Shown here piece after piece: positions 2,701 to 18,914 of a DNA stretch of 64,000 nt (the stretch's first letter is position 1; each line of letters begins with the position of its first letter). The notes under the pieces are model-generated. The model ran no database searches. It was not told the DNA's origin and was given only the letters and a program-made list of their open reading frames with translations. The DNA lies in the sequence record PP526941.1; one strand, given 5' to 3'. The DNA is from Escherichia phage vB_EcoM_ECO78. The translations under genes were made by a program, and so were the position numbers.

Positions 2701-3902
2701 TATTTTGTAATAATGTCAAACTGTTCTTTAAAGCAGAAGCTTGAATCTTGATGTTGATACAAAAATTCATACGCTTTTTCTCGCTCACGGTCATAAAGAG
2801 CTCGGTCAGATGACAGTTCTTTAATACGTTCAAACGTTGATTCCATATCATTTTCATCAAACCAAATGATACCGCTATCATGCGAGGTCAAAGGAGTATT
2901 ATCAACACGGAATTTTAAATTTTCGCCAGTAGATTTCCAAAATACCGGAATTGTTCCACATGCACCAAGCTCGAGATGAGTATATTCTAAAGAACGCTGT
3001 AGATATTTTTTATCCAACTTACTCAACTGATAACCAAATCCGGATTTACTCATACGCTCAAGCATTTCGCTATTTACATAACGGTCAAGAATTTGCGTTG
3101 GCAAATTAGGAGCAATTTTAATTTGGTCTACTTGATGAAGACGATAATACTCATATGGAATTCCTTTTTCTTTAATAGGAATGAACGCTGGAGAACGCTC
3201 CAGACCTTCCATAATAGTACTTAGTCCTGCAGGTTTAAGATGTTTTTCATGAAAATCAAACATCTGATAAAAACCTTTCCATGTAGTCGTACGACCAATC
3301 CAACGGTTGATATTCATGTTAATTTCAGAAACATCTTTCCAGTAGGTTGACCGAACCTTCGCAATATCCATAGGAGGCTGAAAGTTATATACTGTCGGTG
3401 CTTCTTCAATATCATCAAACAAAGAAACTGTTTCAGGATACCACTCTTTCATCAGAACTTTATTAAAATCACCATTATCAGAATGGCTAAAAATAACATC
3501 AGCTCGACGAACAGTTTCTTCTAATCCCAAATTTCGGCGCAAAGAAAGAGAAGAATGGTCATGTTGATAAACTACAACACGAACTGAAGGTTTAATGTTA
3601 TCAATAATTTTTTTATAGTTATTAATAGTGTCTTCTTCAACTGAAGTAGCAGGAACTGAATTGATAATTAGAATATCACAATCATTTACCAGCTTAAGTG
3701 TTTTATCGTATTCTTTTGCCAATAAAACCGGAATTGAAAATGATTTATAATCATGCGCGCAATTACGAGTAAATGATTTATCTTTAGCATAAACCAAAGT
3801 TACTTCATGACCATTTTTAATAAACCAATCACGTTGCTCAAGAGAAAATTTAGTTACACCGCAACCTTCAAGACCTCGAGCCATAAAAATACATACTTTC
3901 AT
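2700..3902 (-). CDS. a-gt: DNA alpha-glucosyltransferase (HMC alpha-glucosyl transferase)
   Basis: 400 aa, same length and near-identical N-terminus (M.ICIFMARGLEGCGVTKFSLEQRDWF) to T4 a-gt by recall; position between 47 and 55. Confidence 0.85.
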   Translation of the reverse strand: MKVCIFMARGLEGCGVTKFSLEQRDWFIKNGHEVTLVYAKDKSFTRNCAHDYKSFSIPVLLAKEYDKTLKLVNDCDILIINSVPATSVEEDTINNYKKIIDNIKPSVRVVVYQHDHSSLSLRRNLGLEETVRRADVIFSHSDNGDFNKVLMKEWYPETVSLFDDIEEAPTVYNFQPPMDIAKVRSTYWKDVSEINMNINRWIGRTTTWKGFYQMFDFHEKHLKPAGLSTIMEGLERSPAFIPIKEKGIPYEYYRLHQVDQIKIAPNLPTQILDRYVNSEMLERMSKSGFGYQLSKLDKKYLQRSLEYTHLELGACGTIPVFWKSTGENLKFRVDNTPLTSHDSGIIWFDENDMESTFERIKELSSDRALYDREREKAYEFLYQHQDSSFCFKEQFDIITK

Positions 3903-3968
3903 TTAATATCCTCTTTGTTTTGGTTTATTTTACCAAAAATTTATAAAGCAATATAGGAGCCGAAGCTC

Positions 3969-4142
3969 CTATCCGCATAATACGCCATACAAAGGCTCAT
4001 TAGAACTTCTAAATTTTATGCGCTTATATGTTATAGTTCCTTCTGCTTTAGCTTTATCATGAGACTCTTTAAAGCGTCTCATCATTTCCTCTTTAGAGGA
4101 ACGAATTTTATTATAATCTATTTCAGAAGTCTGGGTGTTCAT
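3969..4142 (-). CDS. Possible small ORF (57 aa), unknown function
   Basis: ATG at 4142 to TAG at 3969; weak SD; stop overlaps GGAGC-UUCG-GCUCC hairpin at 3957-3970. Confidence 0.25.
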   Translation of the reverse strand: MNTQTSEIDYNKIRSSKEEMMRRFKESHDKAKAEGTITYKRIKFRSSNEPLYGVLCG

Positions 4143-4145
4143 CTT

Positions 4146-4352
4146 TCACAGTTGCCACCATTTTTTGACTTGATAAGAATCAACCCACACTTTCATATTA
4201 GGGTCTGCTCTTACAATAGGAGGATTAACTTCTTTAATTGAACTATCATGGTATTCTTTTTCAGAAATTTTCACACAAAGATGACCATTCAAAGATTCAG
4301 TAAATCCTGCATTAATTTTAAGACGCTTGAATTTTACGTGTGTAAGCATCAA
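4146..4352 (-). CDS. Hypothetical protein (68 aa)
   Basis: ORF in the a-gt to 55 interval; overlaps upstream ORF end. Confidence 0.4.
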   Translation of the reverse strand: MMLTHVKFKRLKINAGFTESLNGHLCVKISEKEYHDSSIKEVNPPIVRADPNMKVWVDSYQVKKWWQL

Positions 4353-8415: not shown

Positions 8416-10229
8416 TGGTGTTTAACCCTATGCATGATTTCTTTATTTTTACCGAGATTAAATCCGCGTTCGTTCGGATTTCCCAAATAACCACATGTTC
8501 TTCTTATGGTATTCATCTTTTTAGGATCAGTTTCTCCACAAATAGAACAAACAAATCCGTTTTCAGTAGGAGTCATTTCATGGGTACTTCCACATGTAAA
8601 ACATTTATCTACTGGCATATTAACACCAAAATAATCTAAATGTTGTGCAGCATAATCCCATACAGCCTCAAGACCTTTTAAGTTATTTTTCATATCAGGA
8701 AGTTCAACATAAGAAATGTGACCACCTGTCGCAATGAAATGATATGGCGCTTCACGAGAAATCTTTTCAAACGGAGTAATATTTTCTTCTACTGAAACAT
8801 GGAAACTATTAGTGTACCAACCTTTATCGGTAACATCTTTTACACTTCCATATTTTTCTGTATCGAGTTTACAGAAGCGATAACAAAGGTTTTCAGCAGG
8901 AGTAGAATATAAACTAAAAGCAAATCCAGTTCTTTCAGTCCACTGTTTAAGATGAGCATTCATTTTAGTTAAAATTTCTTGCCCAATATCGCGACCGACA
9001 AGAATATTCAATTCGTGAATACCAATGTATCCCAAAGACACTGAACTTCTACCGTTTTTAAATAACTCAATTATGTCGTCATCAGGTTTAAGACGAACCC
9101 CGAATGCACCTTCTTGGTAAAGAATAGGAGCAACAGTTGCTTTAACTCCTTTTAAGGAACTAATTCTACACATCAAAGCTTCAAAACATAAATCCATTCG
9201 TTCATTGAACAATTCGGCAAATTTCTGTTCATTGAATTGTGTTCCAATATAAGAATCTAACGCAATGCGAGGAAGATTCAGTGTTACAACGCCAAGATTA
9301 TTACGTCCATCAAGAATTTCATTACCAGTCGAATCTTTCCATACGCTCAAGAAACTACGGCAACCCATTGGAGAAACAGGAATAGATGAACCAGTGATAG
9401 CTTTATTATTCTTAACTGAAATAATATCAGGATACATTCTTTTGCTTGCACACTCTAAAGCAAGCTGCTTAATATCATAGTTCGGGTCGTCTTTATAAAG
9501 ATTAACACCTTCTTCAACGAACATAACAAGCTTAGGGAAAATAGGAGTTATCCCATCACGACCAAGACCTTTAATACGATTTTTCAGAATTGCTTTCTGA
9601 ATCATTCGTTCAGTCCAGTCAGTTCCCGTACCAAATGTAATTGTTACAAAAGGCGTTTGTCCGTTTGAACTAAAGAGAGTATTTACTTCATATTCATAAG
9701 CTTGGAATGCATCGTATACGTCTTTTTCTGTTTTAGATTGAGCATAATTCAACGCATCAGCGATTTGCCATTTTTCTGCATCCTCAATATGTTTTGCATA
9801 GGTGCGTTTAACATAAGGAGAAAGTACTTTATCTACATTCGCAAAAGTCGTTCCGCCGTATTGGTGAGAAGCAACTTGCGCAGTAATTTGTGCCATAATT
9901 GCAGTAGCAACGCCAATTGATTTAGGAGTTTCAATCTGTGCATTACCGAGCTTAAATCCGTTCTCAAGCATTCCTTTTAAATCTACTAAACAACAATTAG
10001 TAAATGGAAGAGCAGGGGAATAATCAATATCGTGGAAATGGATAATTCCGCTTTCATGCGCTTTCATAATAAAAGACGGGACCATATTTTTGGCAATGTG
10101 TTTAGACACAATACCAGCCATAAGGTCCCGTTGAGTTGGAAAAACACGAGAATCTTTATTAGCATTCTCGTTTAAAAGGTCTTTATTAGTTTTATGAATC
10201 AATCCTTCAATTTCTTTTTCAATTGTCAT
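8412..10229 (-). CDS. nrdD: Anaerobic ribonucleoside-triphosphate reductase (glycyl radical enzyme), uninterrupted
   Basis: 605 aa; C-terminal glycyl-radical motif RTCGYLG and Cys-rich zinc site; single continuous ORF. Confidence 0.9.
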   Translation of the reverse strand: MTIEKEIEGLIHKTNKDLLNENANKDSRVFPTQRDLMAGIVSKHIAKNMVPSFIMKAHESGIIHFHDIDYSPALPFTNCCLVDLKGMLENGFKLGNAQIETPKSIGVATAIMAQITAQVASHQYGGTTFANVDKVLSPYVKRTYAKHIEDAEKWQIADALNYAQSKTEKDVYDAFQAYEYEVNTLFSSNGQTPFVTITFGTGTDWTERMIQKAILKNRIKGLGRDGITPIFPKLVMFVEEGVNLYKDDPNYDIKQLALECASKRMYPDIISVKNNKAITGSSIPVSPMGCRSFLSVWKDSTGNEILDGRNNLGVVTLNLPRIALDSYIGTQFNEQKFAELFNERMDLCFEALMCRISSLKGVKATVAPILYQEGAFGVRLKPDDDIIELFKNGRSSVSLGYIGIHELNILVGRDIGQEILTKMNAHLKQWTERTGFAFSLYSTPAENLCYRFCKLDTEKYGSVKDVTDKGWYTNSFHVSVEENITPFEKISREAPYHFIATGGHISYVELPDMKNNLKGLEAVWDYAAQHLDYFGVNMPVDKCFTCGSTHEMTPTENGFVCSICGETDPKKMNTIRRTCGYLGNPNERGFNLGKNKEIMHRVKHQ

Positions 10230-10699
10230 TTTAAACTCTTTCTAAGCTGCTTCTTAAATGAAGCTATTAATTGTGTTTTGGTGTCAGATTCATTATATTC
10301 AAATCCTCTTTGAAGCATCTCAGCCATCATTTCCTCTTTTCCTAAACGAGAAAATTCCTTTGATTTATCTCCAACAAAGTTAGGGTGAATATTATTTTGG
10401 GTGTAATCGGATTTTAAATAAGTAAGTAAATTTTCTAACCATTCAAGATAATCAACCCCTTGTCCCTTTAAGCCAGAACGATTAAATTTATGTTTCATTT
10501 GACCTTCTGCGGCATTGCAGAGATTACAAAGCAATCCACGCACCTTTCCTGCTTTTGGTCCATTTAATTCATGGTCATGGTCAAGGTGATTAGCTTGAAC
10601 ATCAGGATTTAGTTCTCGTTGGCAAATTAAGCATTTACCGTTTTGTGCATCATAAAATTTCTGTTTTTCTTCTTTATATAATTTGCCAGTCAATAACAT
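10226..10699 (-). CDS. 49: Endonuclease VII (Holliday junction resolvase)
   Basis: 157 aa; zinc-binding CLICQ...HLDHDH; matches T4 gp49 by recall. Confidence 0.9.
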   Translation of the reverse strand: MLLTGKLYKEEKQKFYDAQNGKCLICQRELNPDVQANHLDHDHELNGPKAGKVRGLLCNLCNAAEGQMKHKFNRSGLKGQGVDYLEWLENLLTYLKSDYTQNNIHPNFVGDKSKEFSRLGKEEMMAEMLQRGFEYNESDTKTQLIASFKKQLRKSLK

Positions 10700-11348: not shown

Positions 11349-11543
11349 TTAACACCGAAGCTTATTAAGTTCTTCATAATCAATCCAGGATTCTAATCCT
11401 GATGGCAAATCAGATTCAATTTCCCAAAGAAGCTCTTCAATTTTCTGAAGACGATCTAGTTCTTCAGCTGGAATAGTAACCATTGATGGAGTTCTTGATA
11501 CACTAATATCGTAAATCATATTTACCCCAGTTTGACCATGCAA
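11349..11543 (-). CDS. Hypothetical acidic protein (64 aa)
   Basis: ORF between nrdC and pin-like gene. Confidence 0.45.
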   Translation of the reverse strand: MHGQTGVNMIYDISVSRTPSMVTIPAEELDRLQKIEELLWEIESDLPSGLESWIDYEELNKLRC

Positions 11544-11737
11544 TCACCGTATTTCCACTTAGAAATAGACTTTTCACCATTAGAATAATAAACTTCGAGT
11601 TTAGCACGATTATTTTTAATTTGAATAACCTTGGCTGTCATCAAAGTTCCATACCCGTAGTAAACTGCAACTTCATCACCTACATATACCGCGCTTCCGC
11701 GGTAATCATGGATATAATCAGTTCCTTCGAGAATCAT
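11522..11737 (-). CDS. Hypothetical protein (71 aa)
   Basis: ORF; start overlaps nrdC stop. Confidence 0.5.
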   Translation of the reverse strand: MILEGTDYIHDYRGSAVYVGDEVAVYYGYGTLMTAKVIQIKNNRAKLEVYYSNGEKSISKWKYGDCMVKLG

Positions 11738-11998: not shown

Positions 11999-12241
11999 TT
12001 ATTCCTTAATTCCTAGTACTTGTTTAAAAGTCTCGTCGTAATCAAGACTTTGGCCCGTTTGTTCTTTATGTTTGTATATAATATCACTTACTTCTGATAG
12101 CATATTTTTATATGAACGAGTTAAAGCAGATTTAAGCACACTGTATCTATCAGGAAATTTACCATGTTCATTATAATAAGCTATTGCTAATTCACGGACT
12201 GCCTTTTCAGCAGTCTCCATATATTCTTTACGCTTGGTCAT
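11999..12241 (-). CDS. Hypothetical protein (about 80 aa)
   Basis: Internal ATG ([13 protein letters not shown]...) chosen because longer ORF overlaps the upstream gene in another frame. Confidence 0.45.
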
Positions 12242-12542
12242 TTTCTTCTCGGTCAAATCGGTGTTTACAATGACGACATTTATAACGAAGATTACTAGTC
12301 TGCCAATGAACCAATTGGACCTGTTCAGTTCCACATTCAGGGCAATTAGGAACGTTTTTAGAAGCACGTTCGCGGCGTTCAACCATGACCATTACAGAAT
12401 CCCAATTAACAGGAGGGCTATAATCATCACAACCATGAATCTTTCCACGCATTTCCAGATCGTCTTCTTCACCAGCCATAATAATTTTAATTAGACTAGA
12501 ATTACTTGAAGCTGCAATGTCTTCTAATAGACGCTTTTTCAT
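12228..12542 (-). CDS. Zinc-ribbon protein (104 aa)
   Basis: Cys pairs CPECG ... CRHCKH; ATGA overlap with upstream gene stop. Confidence 0.6.
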
Positions 12543-13468
12543 TTCAATACCTCAATAGCATTACGTAAACCATTTGCTTTTGCATTAAGAGCTTTTAACA
12601 ATTTGGTGTGTTCTGCAATTTGGGCTTCAACTTCAATCAAACGAGCATTGAGATATTCGCGTTCTTCGCTCAGGTTATCAACCTTTTCTACTTTAGGTTC
12701 TTTTACAACTGGCTTATACGTATTAGGGTTCTTCAGTTTAATTAGAATGCGTGAGCTGTATAACATTGAACCATTATCTTCGGTTTCATCATACATTTCC
12801 ACTACATCCATGATTTTTAACATCATGCGGAGTTTATAAGACAACGAACGAATAGTTTTGTTGTGCTTATTAATTTCTCTAGCTGTCATGGTGCCGAGAT
12901 TACGTGAGTAATAATAAGGAACCTGGATATTAATTAATACTGATGAACCACCTGGCTTGTGTGTTACTTCATCAGCAATAACCCAGTCCTTAACGTGAAC
13001 TGTATTTGTACGGTCATCGCCCGCGGTAAATAGTTTGCGAGCATGCTTAAAAAGCATATTCACTTGGTCATTGAATTGACAAGCAAATTTATCAGCAAAT
13101 TTAGTTTCAGGAATGGTAGATAACCAATCAGCCAAATGGGTCTTTTTAACATCGTTAACAATAGTAAATTCAACCAAATCGGTTATAGATGTCGCAGATT
13201 TAATGAAGCTCGGCTTCATAAAGTTTTCAATGTTATCACGAGCTACAGTAGAAGATAACATACGAGAACGTTTAAACCATTCAAGCAAATTGCCTAACGA
13301 ATGAGAATAAGCGTTCTGTGTATCTTTACAGATATGATTTTCCTGGCCAACATATTGAAGGAAATCACGAAGAATATTATTGATTACTGCTCTGTGTCCT
13401 ATCTGATAATTACGATGTTTAGTAATAAGACTGTCAAAATAATCAATATAATGTTTACGAGTTTTCAT
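12539..13468 (-). CDS. Paralog family member A (309 aa), C-terminal coiled coil
   Basis: N-terminus MKTRKHY; block FKRSRMLSSTVARDNIENF shared with neighbours; heptad-rich C-terminal 50 aa. Confidence 0.7.
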   Translation of the reverse strand: MKTRKHYIDYFDSLITKHRNYQIGHRAVINNILRDFLQYVGQENHICKDTQNAYSHSLGNLLEWFKRSRMLSSTVARDNIENFMKPSFIKSATSITDLVEFTIVNDVKKTHLADWLSTIPETKFADKFACQFNDQVNMLFKHARKLFTAGDDRTNTVHVKDWVIADEVTHKPGGSSVLINIQVPYYYSRNLGTMTAREINKHNKTIRSLSYKLRMMLKIMDVVEMYDETEDNGSMLYSSRILIKLKNPNTYKPVVKEPKVEKVDNLSEEREYLNARLIEVEAQIAEHTKLLKALNAKANGLRNAIEVLK

Positions 13469-13520
13469 GTTCTTCTCACTTGGTTAATGATTTATACTCC
13501 GAGCCATCCTTGGCTTTAAA

Positions 13521-14522
13521 TTACTTAATTAACTGTAAAGCTTGTTCCAAACGATCCAGACGATTAACAGATTCTTCCCAAATCCTTTTAGCCTGCTCAT
13601 ATTCTTTCTGCGCTTTATTAGAAATTTCTAGAACTTCTTTATAAGCTTTTTCTAATGCAATAACTTCTGGACGAATTTCTACCGATTCAGGCGAATCATC
13701 AAGATTATCCATTAGTTCCTCAAGGGTAGTTTCTTCTTTAGGAGTATTCACAATTTCATCACATTTTTGTTGGTAAATTTCTTTATCAGTTAGTGAATAA
13801 GCACACTTTACTTCACGAAGACTAACTACAATTTTATATCCTTCCCAACCGCATATATTCTTAAAAGGATAAGTATGAATATTTTCTACTGTTTCCATAC
13901 AAAGTAATGCGGTCTCTAATTGACGAGTTATAGTGCTAGCAATTGAGAAAAATTTATTAATATTCTTTTGGTTAGTTTCTGGTGTAAAAAATCCATAATT
14001 CACAAAAATAGATACTTTATTTTTATCAAGTTCATATTCTTTTATGATAATCATATCAGAAGCCAAAGGATGAATTTGACGATAATCGCCATAACATAAT
14101 TTAGAAGCTGATTTTAGAATTTGTCCTCTGAAAAGTCTGAAATTACTAATCCAACGACGAGTAAAAATATTCTCAGGGTCTTCTTTGACATTAAGATGAT
14201 AAGAATTAACATCACCGAACCAATTATATCCTACTACATCTTTGGTTCGTTTAATTTCTTTCCCAAAATTACCAAGAATATCCCGATTAACCAAATATGA
14301 AAGAAGACGAGACTCTTTAAAGGTTTTCTTGATAACATCTTTATCTACACGGCTAGAAATTTTACGAATTTCATGAATAAATTTAGCAGAAGAAACAATA
14401 CCTGCATCAACACTATTGAGCCACTGATTGATAATAGAAAGAACGCTATTTTGGCCAAACATCGGTATAGCTTTATCATCAATAACGCTATTGAATGATT
14501 TGATATATTCGTTGCGAGTCAT
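13521..14522 (-). CDS. Paralog family member B (333 aa), C-terminal coiled coil
   Basis: SD GAGGAG before ATG (MTRNEYIKSF...); block FKESRLLSYLVNRDILGNF; C-terminal coiled coil. Confidence 0.7.
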   Translation of the reverse strand: MTRNEYIKSFNSVIDDKAIPMFGQNSVLSIINQWLNSVDAGIVSSAKFIHEIRKISSRVDKDVIKKTFKESRLLSYLVNRDILGNFGKEIKRTKDVVGYNWFGDVNSYHLNVKEDPENIFTRRWISNFRLFRGQILKSASKLCYGDYRQIHPLASDMIIIKEYELDKNKVSIFVNYGFFTPETNQKNINKFFSIASTITRQLETALLCMETVENIHTYPFKNICGWEGYKIVVSLREVKCAYSLTDKEIYQQKCDEIVNTPKEETTLEELMDNLDDSPESVEIRPEVIALEKAYKEVLEISNKAQKEYEQAKRIWEESVNRLDRLEQALQLIK

Positions 14523-14550
14523 AATAATCTCCTCAGTAGAAAGTAAGAAC

Positions 14551-14580
14551 ATTATACCACATCCTTGTGGCAAAGTAAAC
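14551..14580 (-). promoter_or_regulatory. Early promoter upstream of paralog B
   Basis: Minus strand GTTTAC - 18 nt - TGGTATAAT (extended -10). Confidence 0.65.
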
Positions 14581-15584
14581 TAATTCAGTGCATTTAATGC
14601 ATTGTTCAGTTTAGAACGTTGCTTTGTCAGATTTTGAACCCTTGACTGAGCTTGTTCTAACACCTTTTCAGCTTCTAGCATTTCATTGGTTGCTTTAACT
14701 AATTCATCATCTACTGCCTTGATAGACTTCTCAATCGCGTCAGCGTGCCATTTTTCTACAGGTTTAAAATTTGAATTTTCAGTAGGAAGAAAACTCACTT
14801 TATTAAGTTTACATGCATCTATGTTACTTGAACTATACATCCAAAATTTAGAATCGTTTGATGAGTAGTTATCTTGCACTTCATGCTTTTTCTCTTGCGG
14901 GACTTCGTCCTTTCTCAAAAAATCGTATTTAAATGAAACGATCATATCAAGTTCATATGTTGTTGTGTCTAATTTAAATCGCTCAAAACGAGGTAAAATC
15001 TTAGACTGAACAGCGGCAACAACATCCATATACTTAAATGCTTCTGTCAACTGCGATTTAAGGCATTCACAAATTGAAAGAGAATTTTTTGTATTAGGTT
15101 TAAAGCTAATTCGTGCAGTTCTGTTATTTTCTTTTAATGGTCTTACTTCCATCTGAAGAGTATAACCATCAAATTTCAGGTTCTTTAAGTTAATGTCAGA
15201 GCCTTTTAATCGACTAGCCGTCGACAAAATTTGCTTTAATTGTTTACGGAATAGAGCAATAAATCTCCATTCAATACGATAATGATTTGGATTAAAAAAT
15301 CCAGATGATAAATCAACCTTACTCTGACCAACGCCTTGAACAAATAGAGGATTTTTATAATCAATAGTTTTACAGAAATCGGTGAGCTGCTCACGAGCCG
15401 TCATTTGTGTAATATACCCCGCTTTACTAAAATGACGTAACCATTCACTGCTATTCATATATTTAAAGTGAATATCACGATTAACTTTATCAGGGTCTAA
15501 ATTATTTTGGCACAAAAATGTCATAACATCACGAGTATAGCTGGCATTACGAACCATATCTTCAATTTGAGAACGAGTTTTCAT
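14580..15584 (-). CDS. Paralog family member C (334 aa), C-terminal coiled coil
   Basis: N-terminus MKTRSQIEDM; block FSKAGYITQMTAREQLTDF; SD AAGGAA; C-terminal coiled coil. Confidence 0.7.
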   Translation of the reverse strand: MKTRSQIEDMVRNASYTRDVMTFLCQNNLDPDKVNRDIHFKYMNSSEWLRHFSKAGYITQMTAREQLTDFCKTIDYKNPLFVQGVGQSKVDLSSGFFNPNHYRIEWRFIALFRKQLKQILSTASRLKGSDINLKNLKFDGYTLQMEVRPLKENNRTARISFKPNTKNSLSICECLKSQLTEAFKYMDVVAAVQSKILPRFERFKLDTTTYELDMIVSFKYDFLRKDEVPQEKKHEVQDNYSSNDSKFWMYSSSNIDACKLNKVSFLPTENSNFKPVEKWHADAIEKSIKAVDDELVKATNEMLEAEKVLEQAQSRVQNLTKQRSKLNNALNALN

Positions 15585-15592
15585 GGTGTTCC

Positions 15593-16483
15593 TTAAGATT
15601 TAAGTAAATCGACAATTTTAATTAACTTTTCACGCTCAGATTTAGCTTTACTACTCAGTCCAGATAGTCTGAAAATTTCATCATCATATTGTTGAATAGA
15701 AATATTCAGCTCTTCAATTTGCTTATTAAAATAATCAATTTGTTCAGAATGTTTTTCGTTACTACGAACTGGTACAGGTTTTGTAGGCAATTTAGTTGAA
15801 CTGGATTCATCCGGGCGATAAATTAAAATGCAATTTGAACCAATCGGGCATTTAGCACCAGATGAATATTCTAATGTTCCGGCTTCTTTTAAAACTTCAA
15901 AAGCTAAACAGAGATGATGCCCCATATTAACATAATCTGTAGAGCGAGCTCTGATATAATAATCATCGCCCCTAATACTAAATTTAAAGCATTTAAGGTC
16001 TTCTGTATTATTAGTTTTAAAAATCATTTGTTTATCTAGACCTTTAGCCAATCGAGCACCTAATGCTAATAATCGTCGTTGATTTTCCCACAAATCCGTA
16101 ATCATTTGGTCGAATGATAATTTTGGCATTAGTCGACCATAAAGGTCATATCCTTTATTATAATTACGAAGGATTTCACTCGCGTTAATGCGAGACAATG
16201 CTCCAATTTTATTAAGGGCTTTCATAATGCGATTAGATAAACTCATTCCAGATCCGTTTGTTCGCTGCAAATGTTTTTCTAATCCAAATCCAATATCAAC
16301 TTTAAACTTATCTAAAATTTCTGCATGAACATCTCTGTCGATAACATTCAAATCCAAAGTTGAGTTAAATCTATGAAAAAATTTATCTGGCTCTCCACGA
16401 CGAAGTACAGTCCATTCATTCATCATTTTTTTATTAACTAAAGATTTAATTACTGCATTGACATTATTAATTGCTACTGACAT
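15593..16483 (-). CDS. Paralog family member D (about 296 aa), C-terminal coiled coil
   Basis: Track ORF begins at TTG; SD GAGGAAAAT before ATG (MSVAINNV...); more divergent but same size and coiled-coil tail. Confidence 0.65.
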   Translation of the reverse strand: MSVAINNVNAVIKSLVNKKMMNEWTVLRRGEPDKFFHRFNSTLDLNVIDRDVHAEILDKFKVDIGFGLEKHLQRTNGSGMSLSNRIMKALNKIGALSRINASEILRNYNKGYDLYGRLMPKLSFDQMITDLWENQRRLLALGARLAKGLDKQMIFKTNNTEDLKCFKFSIRGDDYYIRARSTDYVNMGHHLCLAFEVLKEAGTLEYSSGAKCPIGSNCILIYRPDESSSTKLPTKPVPVRSNEKHSEQIDYFNKQIEELNISIQQYDDEIFRLSGLSSKAKSEREKLIKIVDLLKS

Positions 16484-16490
16484 ATTTTCC

Positions 16491-16898
16491 TCACTCAATT
16501 TCAATTTTACTAAATATACAGAATAAGATGGAACAGACTATATAAGCACCACACACAGATTGAACTAATACCATTCCAAAGAACCAAACAATATTATCAA
16601 ACAATGTCTGTTTTACGTCGAAAGGACGTAAACTTACAGTAATATTATCACCTTTTTCTATTGATGAATACATCTCTGGGGAAATATATTCACTAAATCT
16701 ATAACCGTCTTTTAGTTCATATACGGCAATAAACGATAAACTAGACCCTTTTCCTTGTGTTCCTGTAATGGTATTAACTACAGTAACATCATAATCTTTA
16801 TAATGCATATAATCATTAATTGCGTAATAACCATATGCAACTACTACACATAAACAACATATCAATAAATTCAATCTTTTAATTATCAACTGTTTCAT
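16491..16898 (-). CDS. Membrane protein (135 aa), N- and C-terminal TM segments
   Basis: Hydrophobic N-terminus LLICCLCVVVAYGYYAI and C-terminus WFFGMVLVQSVCGAYIVCSILFCIF. Confidence 0.6.
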   Translation of the reverse strand: MKQLIIKRLNLLICCLCVVVAYGYYAINDYMHYKDYDVTVVNTITGTQGKGSSLSFIAVYELKDGYRFSEYISPEMYSSIEKGDNITVSLRPFDVKQTLFDNIVWFFGMVLVQSVCGAYIVCSILFCIFSKIEIE

Positions 16899-16934
16899 AA
16901 TAATCTCAATTAAAAGGGCTTAGAACCATTATAC

Positions 16935-16965
16935 CATCCTTGGTATAAAGCGGTTATGCGAGTAC
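16935..16965 (-). promoter_or_regulatory. Possible middle-type promoter (MotA-box-like)
   Basis: Minus strand CGCTTTA (one mismatch to TGCTTtA) - 12 nt - TGGTATAAT. Confidence 0.35.
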
Positions 16966-17481
16966 CGTCTTTAACCGTTCTTCAAACTTCCGAAGAGTAT
17001 TTTGGCGTTCAGCTCTTTGCTTTTTGTAAGTTTCAATACGCTCTGAAATGAGAGTGTATCGTTCATTTACTGATTCTTTCATAAAATCAGGAATTTCACG
17101 AGAAGCTTTAATCTCGTCAAATTTATCAATAACAGCTTGCTCTTCAGCAATTAAGTTATCATACATTAAAATATCTTTCTTGATGAACTCAATATCTTCT
17201 TGAGTTACACGAGATAATTTAGATGCTTTATCCTTTTTGTACTGTTCATTAGTATCACGAGACCAGTGTAATGTACGATTTTTATTCGTATTCTTGTAAA
17301 TTTCTACAATACCAATCTCATCAATAATAACGATCCAATTCCAACGGGATTTGTAAATTTGTCCTCCATCAACTGTGATTTCACCTCCGATTGAGATGTC
17401 ATTAAAGAACTTGCTTTGTGCTTCTGATTTAAATTTACCATCGTTGTAATTTACCAGGTTGAAAATATCTTTAGCGTTCAT
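16954..17481 (-). CDS. Hypothetical protein (175 aa), C-terminal coiled coil
   Basis: ORF with SD GGAGG; charged helical C-terminus. Confidence 0.6.
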   Translation of the reverse strand: MNAKDIFNLVNYNDGKFKSEAQSKFFNDISIGGEITVDGGQIYKSRWNWIVIIDEIGIVEIYKNTNKNRTLHWSRDTNEQYKKDKASKLSRVTQEDIEFIKKDILMYDNLIAEEQAVIDKFDEIKASREIPDFMKESVNERYTLISERIETYKKQRAERQNTLRKFEERLKTVLA

Positions 17482-17509
17482 TTTGTGTTCCTCCGTAGTT
17501 GATAGTTGT

Positions 17510-17539
17510 ATAGTACCACAGAGGAACAGTCTTGTAAAC
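17510..17539 (-). promoter_or_regulatory. Early promoter with conserved initial-transcribed block
   Basis: Minus strand GTTTAC - 18 nt - TACTAT followed by ACAACTATCAAC and SD GGAGG. Confidence 0.65.
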
Positions 17540-17541
17540 CA

Positions 17542-17847
17542 CTAAAAGAAACTTCTTTCACAATTTTTTCCACTGAACCATGCACTTACCGCTTTCTTGG
17601 TCTCAGGGGCAGTGTTATCCATAAACCATTCAAAGGCAGCCTTTTTATGATTCTGGAGGGCTTCTCGGGCTTTAATCTGCTCACGGTCTATTAACACTAA
17701 CATATGAGCCTTTCTTGTCACCATGGGCTTCTTATGATTTTTTGAATACTCCCAGTCATTTGTCCATCGCATTGTCGTTGCGAACTGAAATACTGCTTCT
17801 TTAATTTTAGTTTCGTAAATTTCACGAGCCTTTGAGTATAACATCAT
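17542..17847 (-). CDS. Hypothetical protein (about 101 aa)
   Basis: SD GGAGG before internal ATG; track ORF 17542-17856. Confidence 0.5.
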   Translation of the reverse strand: MMLYSKAREIYETKIKEAVFQFATTMRWTNDWEYSKNHKKPMVTRKAHMLVLIDREQIKAREALQNHKKAAFEWFMDNTAPETKKAVSAWFSGKNCERSFF

Positions 17848-17945
17848 TACCTCCATTCACCAGTTTAATTCTAGTCATCTTTTTAATGGCAGTCCATATA
17901 ATCTATTTCTGAACTGCCTTTTTGTCATAGAAGTCCTCTTATGAA

Positions 17946-18914
17946 TTATTTCAGAAGAGTAACCTCAGCGATTTCTTCCCAACCGTTTTTGTCGGTCATA
18001 ATAAAGTCAGCAAGATAAAGAGCAGTACGCAGTGAAACATTACGTAAACGGTTAACATTGACTTTCATCCATGATAATGCTTTATAAGTTTCTTCATCAG
18101 AAAGACCGCGCTTTTGCATCATGTCAGTTGAAAGAATAACATCTTCAACCCTGACCATAATTTCTTCATTAGTGTGAACACCCAAATCCAAATAAACTGA
18201 GCGGGACACTAATGCTTGTAAATGTGGAGCAAGTTTAGTACCACGGTCTAATTCGCGGTCAATGTCAACGTTTGTGATAAAAACAATCGTTCCTTTAAAT
18301 TCAAACTCACGCTCAATGCCTTTTTCTTCTAAGTAAGAAGATGCAGTGCTCCAGCAGACTTTACGGGTCTCTCCAGTGTCCAGAGCAGCTTTCAGAAGAT
18401 TAAGAATGTCCATATCAGAGAAAACATCCACATCATCAATCAAAAGGACAGAATTCTCTTCACGATTATTCCAGAGCTGTTCATAAAGACCGATACCAGA
18501 GATTTTACCATTAATGCTTTTATACTCAATGTATCCAATATCATTTGCTTTATTTAAAGCTTTATCTAAAGAATACGTTTTACCAATACCTGCCGCACCA
18601 GAGATAATTAATGAACGAATGTTTCCGTTAATAATACCATTCGTCATCATTCCCATAACATTAAATCTTTTATTAATGCGGGTTTTCATATCTTCATATG
18701 ATTCTTTAACTTCTTCAACTTTTACACCATCATATGAAATGTCTGATTTGTAAACCCAAACACCGCGACGTTTACCGTCAATTTCAACAAAAACTTTACC
18801 ATCTCCTTGTGCATCTACCGGAGCATTATCTGGGAACCATTCACCTAAGAGCTCAAAAGTTCCAGAGATTTCTTTACCGAAGTAGATACCCTTATTGATA
18901 GTTACAGTTTTCAT
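17946..18914 (-). CDS. P-loop NTPase (AAA-like ATPase), 322 aa
   Basis: Walker A GAAGIGKT and Walker B VLLIDDVD; SD GGAG before ATG (MKTVTINKG...); track ORF begins at TTG. Confidence 0.7.
   Translation of the reverse strand: MKTVTINKGIYFGKEISGTFELLGEWFPDNAPVDAQGDGKVFVEIDGKRRGVWVYKSDISYDGVKVEEVKESYEDMKTRINKRFNVMGMMTNGIINGNIRSLIISGAAGIGKTYSLDKALNKANDIGYIEYKSINGKISGIGLYEQLWNNREENSVLLIDDVDVFSDMDILNLLKAALDTGETRKVCWSTASSYLEEKGIEREFEFKGTIVFITNVDIDRELDRGTKLAPHLQALVSRSVYLDLGVHTNEEIMVRVEDVILSTDMMQKRGLSDEETYKALSWMKVNVNRLRNVSLRTALYLADFIMTDKNGWEEIAEVTLLK

Follow-up and report, generated by a model that had tools for sequence, protein, structure and literature searches.

Four consecutive genes on the minus strand of the T4-like Escherichia phage vB_EcoM_ECO78 (sequence record PP526941.1) make up its nrdC.3-nrdC.4-nrdC.5-nrdC.6 block, and the array is best explained as four ancient and strongly diverged paralogues belonging to one protein family. 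The window in which they were analysed is a stretch of 64,000 nucleotides (nt) of this genome. The evidence for paralogy is strong for NrdC.3, NrdC.4 and NrdC.5 and weaker for NrdC.6, which has diverged furthest of the four. As T4 open reading frames (ORFs) all four genes have long been known, and a phenotype of nrdC.5 directed against the host defence protein Dsr1 has already been published. With moderate confidence, we favour the view that this array of remote paralogues encodes a family of non-enzymatic early proteins which bind and neutralise host immune proteins.

Orthologues of the T4 genes nrdC.3 to nrdC.6

The window originates from a T4-like phage (Tequatrovirus), and a megablast search with positions 12539-16504 matched 656 phage records, nearly all of them Tequatrovirus, the top match at 98%. 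T4-named records label the genes of the array NrdC.3, NrdC.4, NrdC.5 and NrdC.6, and the synteny from nrdC to nrdC.10 is kept, the array lying between the group nrdC, nrdC.1 and nrdC.2 and the group nrdC.7 to nrdC.10. The original prediction, made from the DNA alone, had placed four tandem minus-strand genes of 309, 333, 334 and about 296 amino acids (aa) at the site where T4 carries its nrdC.x ORFs; ORFs of those sizes are indeed present, and they are the nrdC.3 to nrdC.6 orthologues themselves:

12539-13468, minus strand: nrdC.3 orthologue, 309 aa; phrog_1435 (E 5e-117)
13521-14522, minus strand: nrdC.4 orthologue, 333 aa counted from its ATG; phrog_1435 (E 1.4e-166); its matches carry the precomputed label PF26897
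14580-15584, minus strand: nrdC.5 orthologue, 334 aa; Pfam DUF7235 (PF23882)
15593-16483, minus strand: nrdC.6 orthologue, 296 aa counted from its ATG; phrog_2257 (E 1.7e-151)

NrdC.5 reaches 373.6 bits against PF23882 (cut-off 30) over its full length (aa 1-334) and is the only one of the four to match that family, and all 105 matches of NrdC.6 carry the precomputed Pfam label PF26899. The orthology of nrdC.5 is evident from 90.6% identity to the protein of T4 strain 147 and from its position between nrdC.6 and nrdC.4.

Three of the proteins had been said to begin with MKTR or MTR, which is true of NrdC.3 (MKTRKHY), NrdC.4 (MTRNEY) and NrdC.5 (MKTRSQ); NrdC.6 starts with MSVAIN. The outer boundary of the array had been set too far upstream, at position 16504. 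The codon there is an upstream TTG; homologues begin instead at the ATG (MSV or MSQ), which is preceded by GAGG, and the end of the NrdC.6 gene thus lies at 16483. The alternative TTG start is overlapped by nrdC.7. A 343-aa form of NrdC.4 appears in some records, and its ATG (14552-14550) coincides in part with the end of the -10 element in the nrdC.4 promoter, so that a transcript from this promoter encodes the 333-aa form. The ORFs on the plus strand across the array region are short and unsupported.

Sequence and structural evidence for paralogy

The four proteins had been described as clearly related, which says too much at the level of pairwise alignment; the relationship is real, but of uneven strength. 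When all pairs were compared by BLASTP only NrdC.3 and NrdC.4 were joined significantly (28% identity over 160 aa, E 1.5e-7), and each of the remaining five pairs of the array gave E > 0.1. The PHROG classification draws the same line, with NrdC.3 and NrdC.4 sharing phrog_1435 and with NrdC.5 and NrdC.6 in two other families; plain hidden Markov model (HMM) searches between the families did not join NrdC.5 and NrdC.6 either. Comparison of the family alignments with hhalign joined all four. For this purpose the NrdC.5 alignment was enriched with counterparts of 23-28% identity from Gaprivervirus, Dhakavirus and a Mosigvirus-like contig, and 16 column shuffles and a reversed template served as controls:

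NrdC.3-NrdC.4: probability 98%, E 2e-13, 222 columns (shuffle control not run)
NrdC.3-NrdC.5: probability 89%, E 2e-6, 229 columns, collinear, z 15
NrdC.4-NrdC.5: probability 61%, E 8e-5, 226 columns, z 8
NrdC.3-NrdC.6: probability 16%, E 0.0017, 122 columns, z 5.9
NrdC.4-NrdC.6: probability 16%, E 0.0017, 92 columns, z 4.7
NrdC.5-NrdC.6: probability 1.5%, E 0.035, 61 columns, z 3.6

In the five of the six pairs that were controlled (z 3.6-15), the real score exceeded all 16 shuffles and the reversal. The neighbouring NrdC.8, which has a coiled-coil tail of its own, was used as a negative control and reached a z of only 1-2 against all four families; coiled-coil composition alone is therefore not the source of the signal within the array. 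On the same score the idea that NrdC.8 might be a fifth, shortened member was rejected at the sequence level. No long DNA repeats between the paralogues were found in the region, and the duplications are thus old.

The profile-profile alignments are anchored by two motifs, a helix-turn-helix block and a second motif, A-x-(K/R)-L...G-D, located 49-75 residues downstream of the block. The block, which the original prediction had noticed, was found in all four proteins, and motif 2 reads ARKLFTAGDD in NrdC.3, ASKLCYGD in NrdC.4, ASRLKGSD in NrdC.5 and GARLAKGLD in NrdC.6. The C-terminal coiled coils proposed at the same time are borne out by a heptad score for all four and by AlphaFold2 helices at residues 276-333 of NrdC.5 and at 243-272 and 277-295 of NrdC.6. 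The positions are as follows:

13220-13276, minus strand: block of NrdC.3, FKRSRMLSSTVARDNIENF, aa 65-83
14265-14321, minus strand: block of NrdC.4, FKESRLLSYLVNRDILGNF, aa 68-86
15375-15431, minus strand: block of NrdC.5, FSKAGYITQMTAREQLTDF, aa 52-70, on model helices 45-54 and 57-68
16160-16216, minus strand: block of NrdC.6, LNKIGALSRINASEILRNY, aa 90-108, on model helices 82-92 and 95-107
12542-12685, minus strand: coiled-coil tail of NrdC.3, aa 262-309, ending ...NAIEVLK (heptad score)
13524-13673, minus strand: coiled-coil tail of NrdC.4, aa 284-333, ending ...QALQLIK (heptad score)
14583-14759, minus strand: single long C-terminal helix of NrdC.5, aa 276-334, ending ...NALNALN (heptad score and model)
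15596-15757, minus strand: C-terminal helical hairpin of NrdC.6, aa 243-296, ending ...IVDLLKS (heptad score and model)

Structure prediction and Foldseek searches, which the original prediction had named as a way to check the relationship, gave a common order of elements and common matches for NrdC.5 and NrdC.6. The AlphaFold2 model of NrdC.6 was built from 48 sequences (predicted local distance difference test score, pLDDT, 78; predicted template modelling score, pTM, 0.66) and that of NrdC.5 from 17 sequences (pLDDT 76, pTM 0.60). In both models N-terminal helices are followed by the helix pair of the block, the helix pair of motif 2, a beta-hairpin, a helix, a second beta-hairpin, a low-confidence linker (residues 228-242 in NrdC.6, 230-272 in NrdC.5) and, at the C-terminus, a long helix that is single in the NrdC.5 model and folded into a hairpin in the NrdC.6 model. 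The sequence-based alignment of the two proteins places the model helices on one another at consistent offsets. A Foldseek search of BFVD returned four uncharacterised viral proteins common to both models, aligned over near-full length at 11-15% identity, with E values between 1e-7 and 5e-3 and Foldseek template modelling (TM) scores of 0.2-0.5 for the NrdC.6 model:

Pectobacterium phage PM2, protein of 309 aa
Yersinia phage fHe-Yen9-01, protein of 313 aa
Serratia phage PS2, protein of 370 aa
Citrobacter phage Merlin, protein of 334 aa (gp91)

The two models and the alignments together suggest one architecture for the family. Variable N-terminal helices, a conserved two-helix block, the motif-2 helix pair and a beta-hairpin/helix/beta-hairpin domain would be followed by a disordered linker of 15-45 aa and then by the predicted coiled-coil helix.

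The shared BFVD matches come from members of the Straboviridae of about 300-370 aa, and in two of these phages the surroundings were inspected. Merlin gp91 (L016, positions 9166-10170) starts with MNFKTKDDF, has a similar tail end (...SAVEALNE), and is located in the early accessory region within a syntenic nrdC region, where it adjoins an NrdC.7-like gene. The 313-aa match from fHe-Yen9-01 is absent from the 16 kb of that genome which were examined; a 292-aa protein, gp94 (L013, positions 9459-10337), is found there instead, again in an early accessory region, with weak NrdC.6 and NrdC.3 HMM matches, the sequence GARLCSGND and the end ...ESLRTLK. Both gp94 and gp91 are distant family members in Tegunavirus and Moonvirus. 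Unlike the genes of the array, the Straboviridae relatives are single copies where checked, at 11-15% identity.

The reading of the array as three paralogues and one unrelated gene, in which the likeness of NrdC.6 comes down to a coiled-coil tail and generic helices, appears quite improbable to us. Its hhalign probabilities are low (1.5-16%, E 0.0017-0.035), but the scores lie above 16 shuffles and the reversal (z 3.6-5.9), a test that the coiled-coil protein NrdC.8 fails, and the alignments extend over the globular block and motif 2, beyond the tail alone. The protein does not have an MKTR start, and its TM-scores to the shared Foldseek matches are just 0.2-0.5; against this, the secondary structure of its model tracks that of NrdC.5 element for element, and the four BFVD matches that it has in common with NrdC.5 are aligned over near-full length. 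Also contrary to an unrelated fourth gene is a natural in-frame NrdC.6::NrdC.4 fusion in Salmonella phage Manna.

Divergence, gene loss and genomic context

Compared with its neighbours the array is fast-evolving; its copy number varies, and natural in-frame chimeras arise from it. Fast evolution and copy-number variation had both been anticipated by the original prediction. Identity to T4 amounts to 59% (59-61%) for NrdC.3, 94% for NrdC.4, 91% for NrdC.5 and 98% for NrdC.6, and nrdC, nrdC.1, nrdC.8, nrdC.9 and nrdC.10 are 99-100% identical to their T4 counterparts. The window thus carries a non-T4 allele of NrdC.3 amid flanking genes which are 97-100% identical to T4. At least three allele groups of NrdC.3 occur in the genus (about 650 records), at about 95%, 78% and 60% identity, and the comparison between the window and the T4-type protein shows only 40-57% identity across aa 91-270 and 80-97% at the ends. 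The allelic variation of NrdC.3 is cassette-like and the strongest of the whole block. Within NrdC.6, conservation is seen in the block, the helix pair and the tail, and variation in the N-terminus and the beta-alpha-beta domain. The ratio of non-synonymous to synonymous substitution rates (dN/dS) is mostly 0.14-0.36 for NrdC.3 to NrdC.5 versus 0-0.12 for nrdC, nrdC.8, nrdC.9 and nrdC.10; the array genes are faster-evolving, yet under purifying selection.

Loss, splitting and fusion of the genes were observed across natural isolates. Gaprivervirus and Dhakavirus have the order NrdC.6, small ORF, NrdC.5-like gene, NrdC.4, without NrdC.3, and in phage SP18 the NrdC.5-like gene is split. All that is left of the array in ACG-C40 is NrdC.6 and a 71-aa stub of NrdC.5 (L014, positions 3805-4020). 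In Manna, which has lost NrdC.5, the body of NrdC.6 is joined in frame with the last 83 aa of NrdC.4 (Manna_094; L015, positions 3215-4252). Among database proteins, the middle of NrdC.5 continues into the C-terminal half of NrdC.3 in P0120, P0231 carries an unrelated 120-aa head on the tail of NrdC.5, and the NrdC.6 of Shigella phage Sf25 (P0122) has an internal duplication of 82 aa. Each of the four genes has been lost or fused in one natural isolate or another, and hence none of them is essential.

The surroundings of the array are themselves variable in part. The phage of the window is without gp49.2 and gp49.3, and the interval between gp49.1 and nrdC (11349-11737) holds ORFs of 64 and 71 aa, as in D5505; with two small ORFs in place of gp49.2 and gp49.3, the stretch from pin to nrdC.6 behaves as a variable accessory island. 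NrdC.2 (12228-12542) has a zinc-ribbon-like CPECG...CRHC and is allelically variable, at 64-97% identity between close phages. NrdC.7 (16491-16898) is hydrophobic, looks like a small membrane protein and is 92-97% identical between close phages. NrdC.8 (16954-17481, 175 aa) has a coiled-coil-like C-terminal tail, ...RKFEERLKTVLA, and is at least 99% identical in 402 records.

NrdC.3 to NrdC.10 (12539-18914) are widely labelled 'thioredoxin' in public phage records. For the genes of the array this label is probably an annotation artefact that derives from the gene name nrdC.x. Thioredoxin and glutaredoxin were considered and rejected for all four proteins: Pfam gave no such family at E <= 1, and none of the four contains a CxxC.

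Transcription and proposed anti-defence function

The early promoter that had been assigned to the second gene, nrdC.4, is present:

14551-14580, minus strand: early-type sigma-70 promoter of nrdC.4, with GTTTAC, a spacer of 17 nt and TGgTATAAT

The first base of its -35 element is the G in the stop codon of nrdC.5, and the Shine-Dalgarno sequence of nrdC.4 is GAGGAG. The gene having an early-type promoter of its own, NrdC.4 is probably expressed early. The promoter-like upstream regions proposed for the other genes find no support in front of nrdC.5 and nrdC.6, where the gaps to the preceding gene measure 8 and 7 nt and hold just a Shine-Dalgarno sequence each; these two genes must therefore be co-transcribed with nrdC.7 and read through from upstream. 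The 52-nt gap upstream of nrdC.3 (13469-13520) contains a small hairpin, AGCCAAGGATGGCT, followed by TATAAAT. The latter resembles the core of T4 late promoters, TATAAATA, and is not of the early type. An Rfam scan of the region returned no matches and hence no sign of an RNA element.

The functional evidence comes from T4. A T4 clone that had lost genes fails to plate on ECOR17 or on MG1655 carrying the ECOR17 dsr1, and T4 nrdC.5 supplied in trans restores the plating of that clone on MG1655 carrying dsr1 (Srikant et al. 2022, eLife, PMC9391042). Dsr1 is a SIR2 NADase defence, and the same study describes nrdC.5 as an early gene (PMC9391042). The gene at 14580-15584 of the window is orthologous to T4 nrdC.5, about 91% identical and in the same position between nrdC.6 and nrdC.4, but it differs at about 9% of its residues and has an insertion or deletion in the disordered linker; the other three genes of the window are remote from T4 NrdC.5 (<30% identity), with separate PHROG families and separate Pfam labels. 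A role in the arms race with the host had been suggested for the whole array, and the published phenotype bears this out for nrdC.5. As paralogues of the anti-Dsr1 gene nrdC.5, NrdC.3, NrdC.4 and NrdC.6 are good candidates for similar jobs, and an anti-defence role may be attributed to them by this kinship. On nrdC.3, nrdC.4 and nrdC.6 the literature search turned up genome announcements only.

The absence of a catalytic motif, noted at the outset from the sequence, agrees with searches of Pfam, NCBIfam and the PDB sequences, which detected no enzyme domain and no solved relative. Sub-threshold matches to PHL, keratin and designed helical repeats were weak or compositional and were dismissed. 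The most likely mode of action of the array proteins is stoichiometric, through the binding and neutralisation of immune proteins of the host. For NrdC.5 the defence counteracted is Dsr1, and the other three are proposed to aim at other defence proteins or variants of them. We tentatively place specificity in the N-terminal and beta-alpha-beta parts, which evolve fast; a conserved scaffold would be provided by the block and the tail, and the C-terminal coiled-coil helix probably drives oligomerisation. Both the direct binding of immune proteins and the oligomerisation through the tail are proposals.

Several points weigh against this reading. The functional data concern one member only, in the form of a plating phenotype of the T4 orthologue rather than of the copy in the window, and no mechanism was shown. 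NrdC.6 is tied to the family by profile scores that are weak (probability 1.5-16%) and by structural evidence of an indirect kind; the models cover NrdC.5 and NrdC.6 only and were compared by the order of their elements, not superposed. Moreover, NrdC.6 is conserved within Tequatrovirus (93-98%) and in that respect less arms-race-like, and gene-wide dN/dS values under 1 give no demonstration of positive selection. A search of 1.84 billion representatives with the HMMER profile of NrdC.5 gave only 14 matches and no bridge to a characterised family; the NrdC.5 family is thus narrow and offers little comparative leverage.

NrdC.5, for which alone there are functional data, might be the only anti-defence protein of the array. 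NrdC.3, NrdC.4 and NrdC.6 would then be paralogues with different early tasks (host takeover, regulation and the binding of nucleic acids are examples) or dispensable relics. We regard this alternative as rather unlikely. The conservation of NrdC.6 in the genus (93-98%), with a dN/dS of 0.06-0.15 close to that of its housekeeping neighbours, is in line with it; the cassette-like diversity of NrdC.3 would be unexpected for a regulator of a conserved process, and the loss or fusion of all four genes in natural isolates argues against any essential function. Residues 30-86 of NrdC.3 produce a sub-threshold match to the N-terminal SAM-like (core-binding) domain of tyrosine recombinases (Pfam E 0.07, NCBIfam E 0.0015), which hints at a nucleic-acid-binding helical module, but the scores are far under the curated cut-offs. 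The tyrosine recombinase SAM-like domain (PF02899), which matched NrdC.3 only, was rejected as an assignment at 13.9 bits versus 22.3 in Pfam and 17.8 versus 279 in NCBIfam.

Another alternative is that NrdC.5 and its relatives act indirectly, by restoring NAD+ or by removing or masking the trigger that is sensed by Dsr1. DSR1 is known to be overcome by NAD+ reconstitution pathways; no domain for nucleotide metabolism and no other enzyme domain, however, is detectable in the sequence or the fold of the proteins, and a variable head on a coiled-coil tail suits a binder more than an enzyme. According to a preprint of 2026 the tetratricopeptide repeat (TPR) sensor of Dsr1 recognises phage major capsid proteins (PMC12803255), and a protein that shields them would produce the phenotype equally well; yet nrdC.5 is early (PMC9391042) and the major capsid protein is late. 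The 2022 study itself leaves room for such an explanation, as it contains no mechanism for nrdC.5 (PMC9391042). Taken together, we consider an indirect mode of action very doubtful.

A further idea is a modular decoy platform, in which a conserved scaffold of block, helix pair and oligomerising coiled-coil tail would present a hypervariable beta-alpha-beta head. This head would mimic those phage structural proteins to which the pattern-recognition defences of the host respond, or compete with them. Each paralogue or allele would then blind another sensor, such as the Dsr1 TPR sensor, and new specificities would arise when heads and tails are exchanged, for which the NrdC.6::NrdC.4 and NrdC.5::NrdC.3 fusions are natural examples. 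What speaks for a decoy are only hints, namely the Foldseek matches of the NrdC.5 model to tail proteins, the cassette variation of the central domain and the chimeras, and we rate the idea as a long shot. The tail-protein matches in question, to tail-completion and tail-terminator proteins, are weak (E 0.007-0.09). A 175-aa protein of Klebsiella phage KPV15 is another weak Foldseek match of the NrdC.5 model (E 0.004).

The preferred reading, of proteins that bind and neutralise host immune factors, has a precedent in DSAD1 of a Bacillus phage. DSAD1 is a non-enzymatic protein described as inhibiting or repressing the SIR2 NADase defence DSR2, and structures of the DSR2-DSAD1 complex have been reported. 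DSAD1 has the role that we propose here, in which NrdC.5 would bind Dsr1. A sequence relationship to DSAD1 was not detected, the profiles of NrdC.5, NrdC.4 and NrdC.6 giving no relevant PDB chain at E <= 1. Closer to home, the T4 genes dmd, tifA and adfA (the 'anti-toxin-antitoxin (TA) island') are accessory genes, small and non-essential, each of which overcomes a single host defence (PMC9391042), and gp49.2, published in 2026 as inhibiting the OLD defence (PMC13096335), sits in the same early block from pin to nrdC in T4 and T6. These loci and the array are alike in being clusters of small non-essential genes that are readily lost or amplified; they differ in that the array is a single family of diverged paralogues, to which those loci have no stated kinship.

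What is new here is the remote paralogy across three separate DUF and PHROG families, a modest point, and the extension of the family at the level of the fold to syntenic genes in other genera of the Straboviridae. The variable N-terminal and beta-alpha-beta parts are the likely specificity regions of these proteins. Three orphan genes, present in hundreds of T-even phages that are candidates for therapy, thereby become testable candidate determinants of host range.

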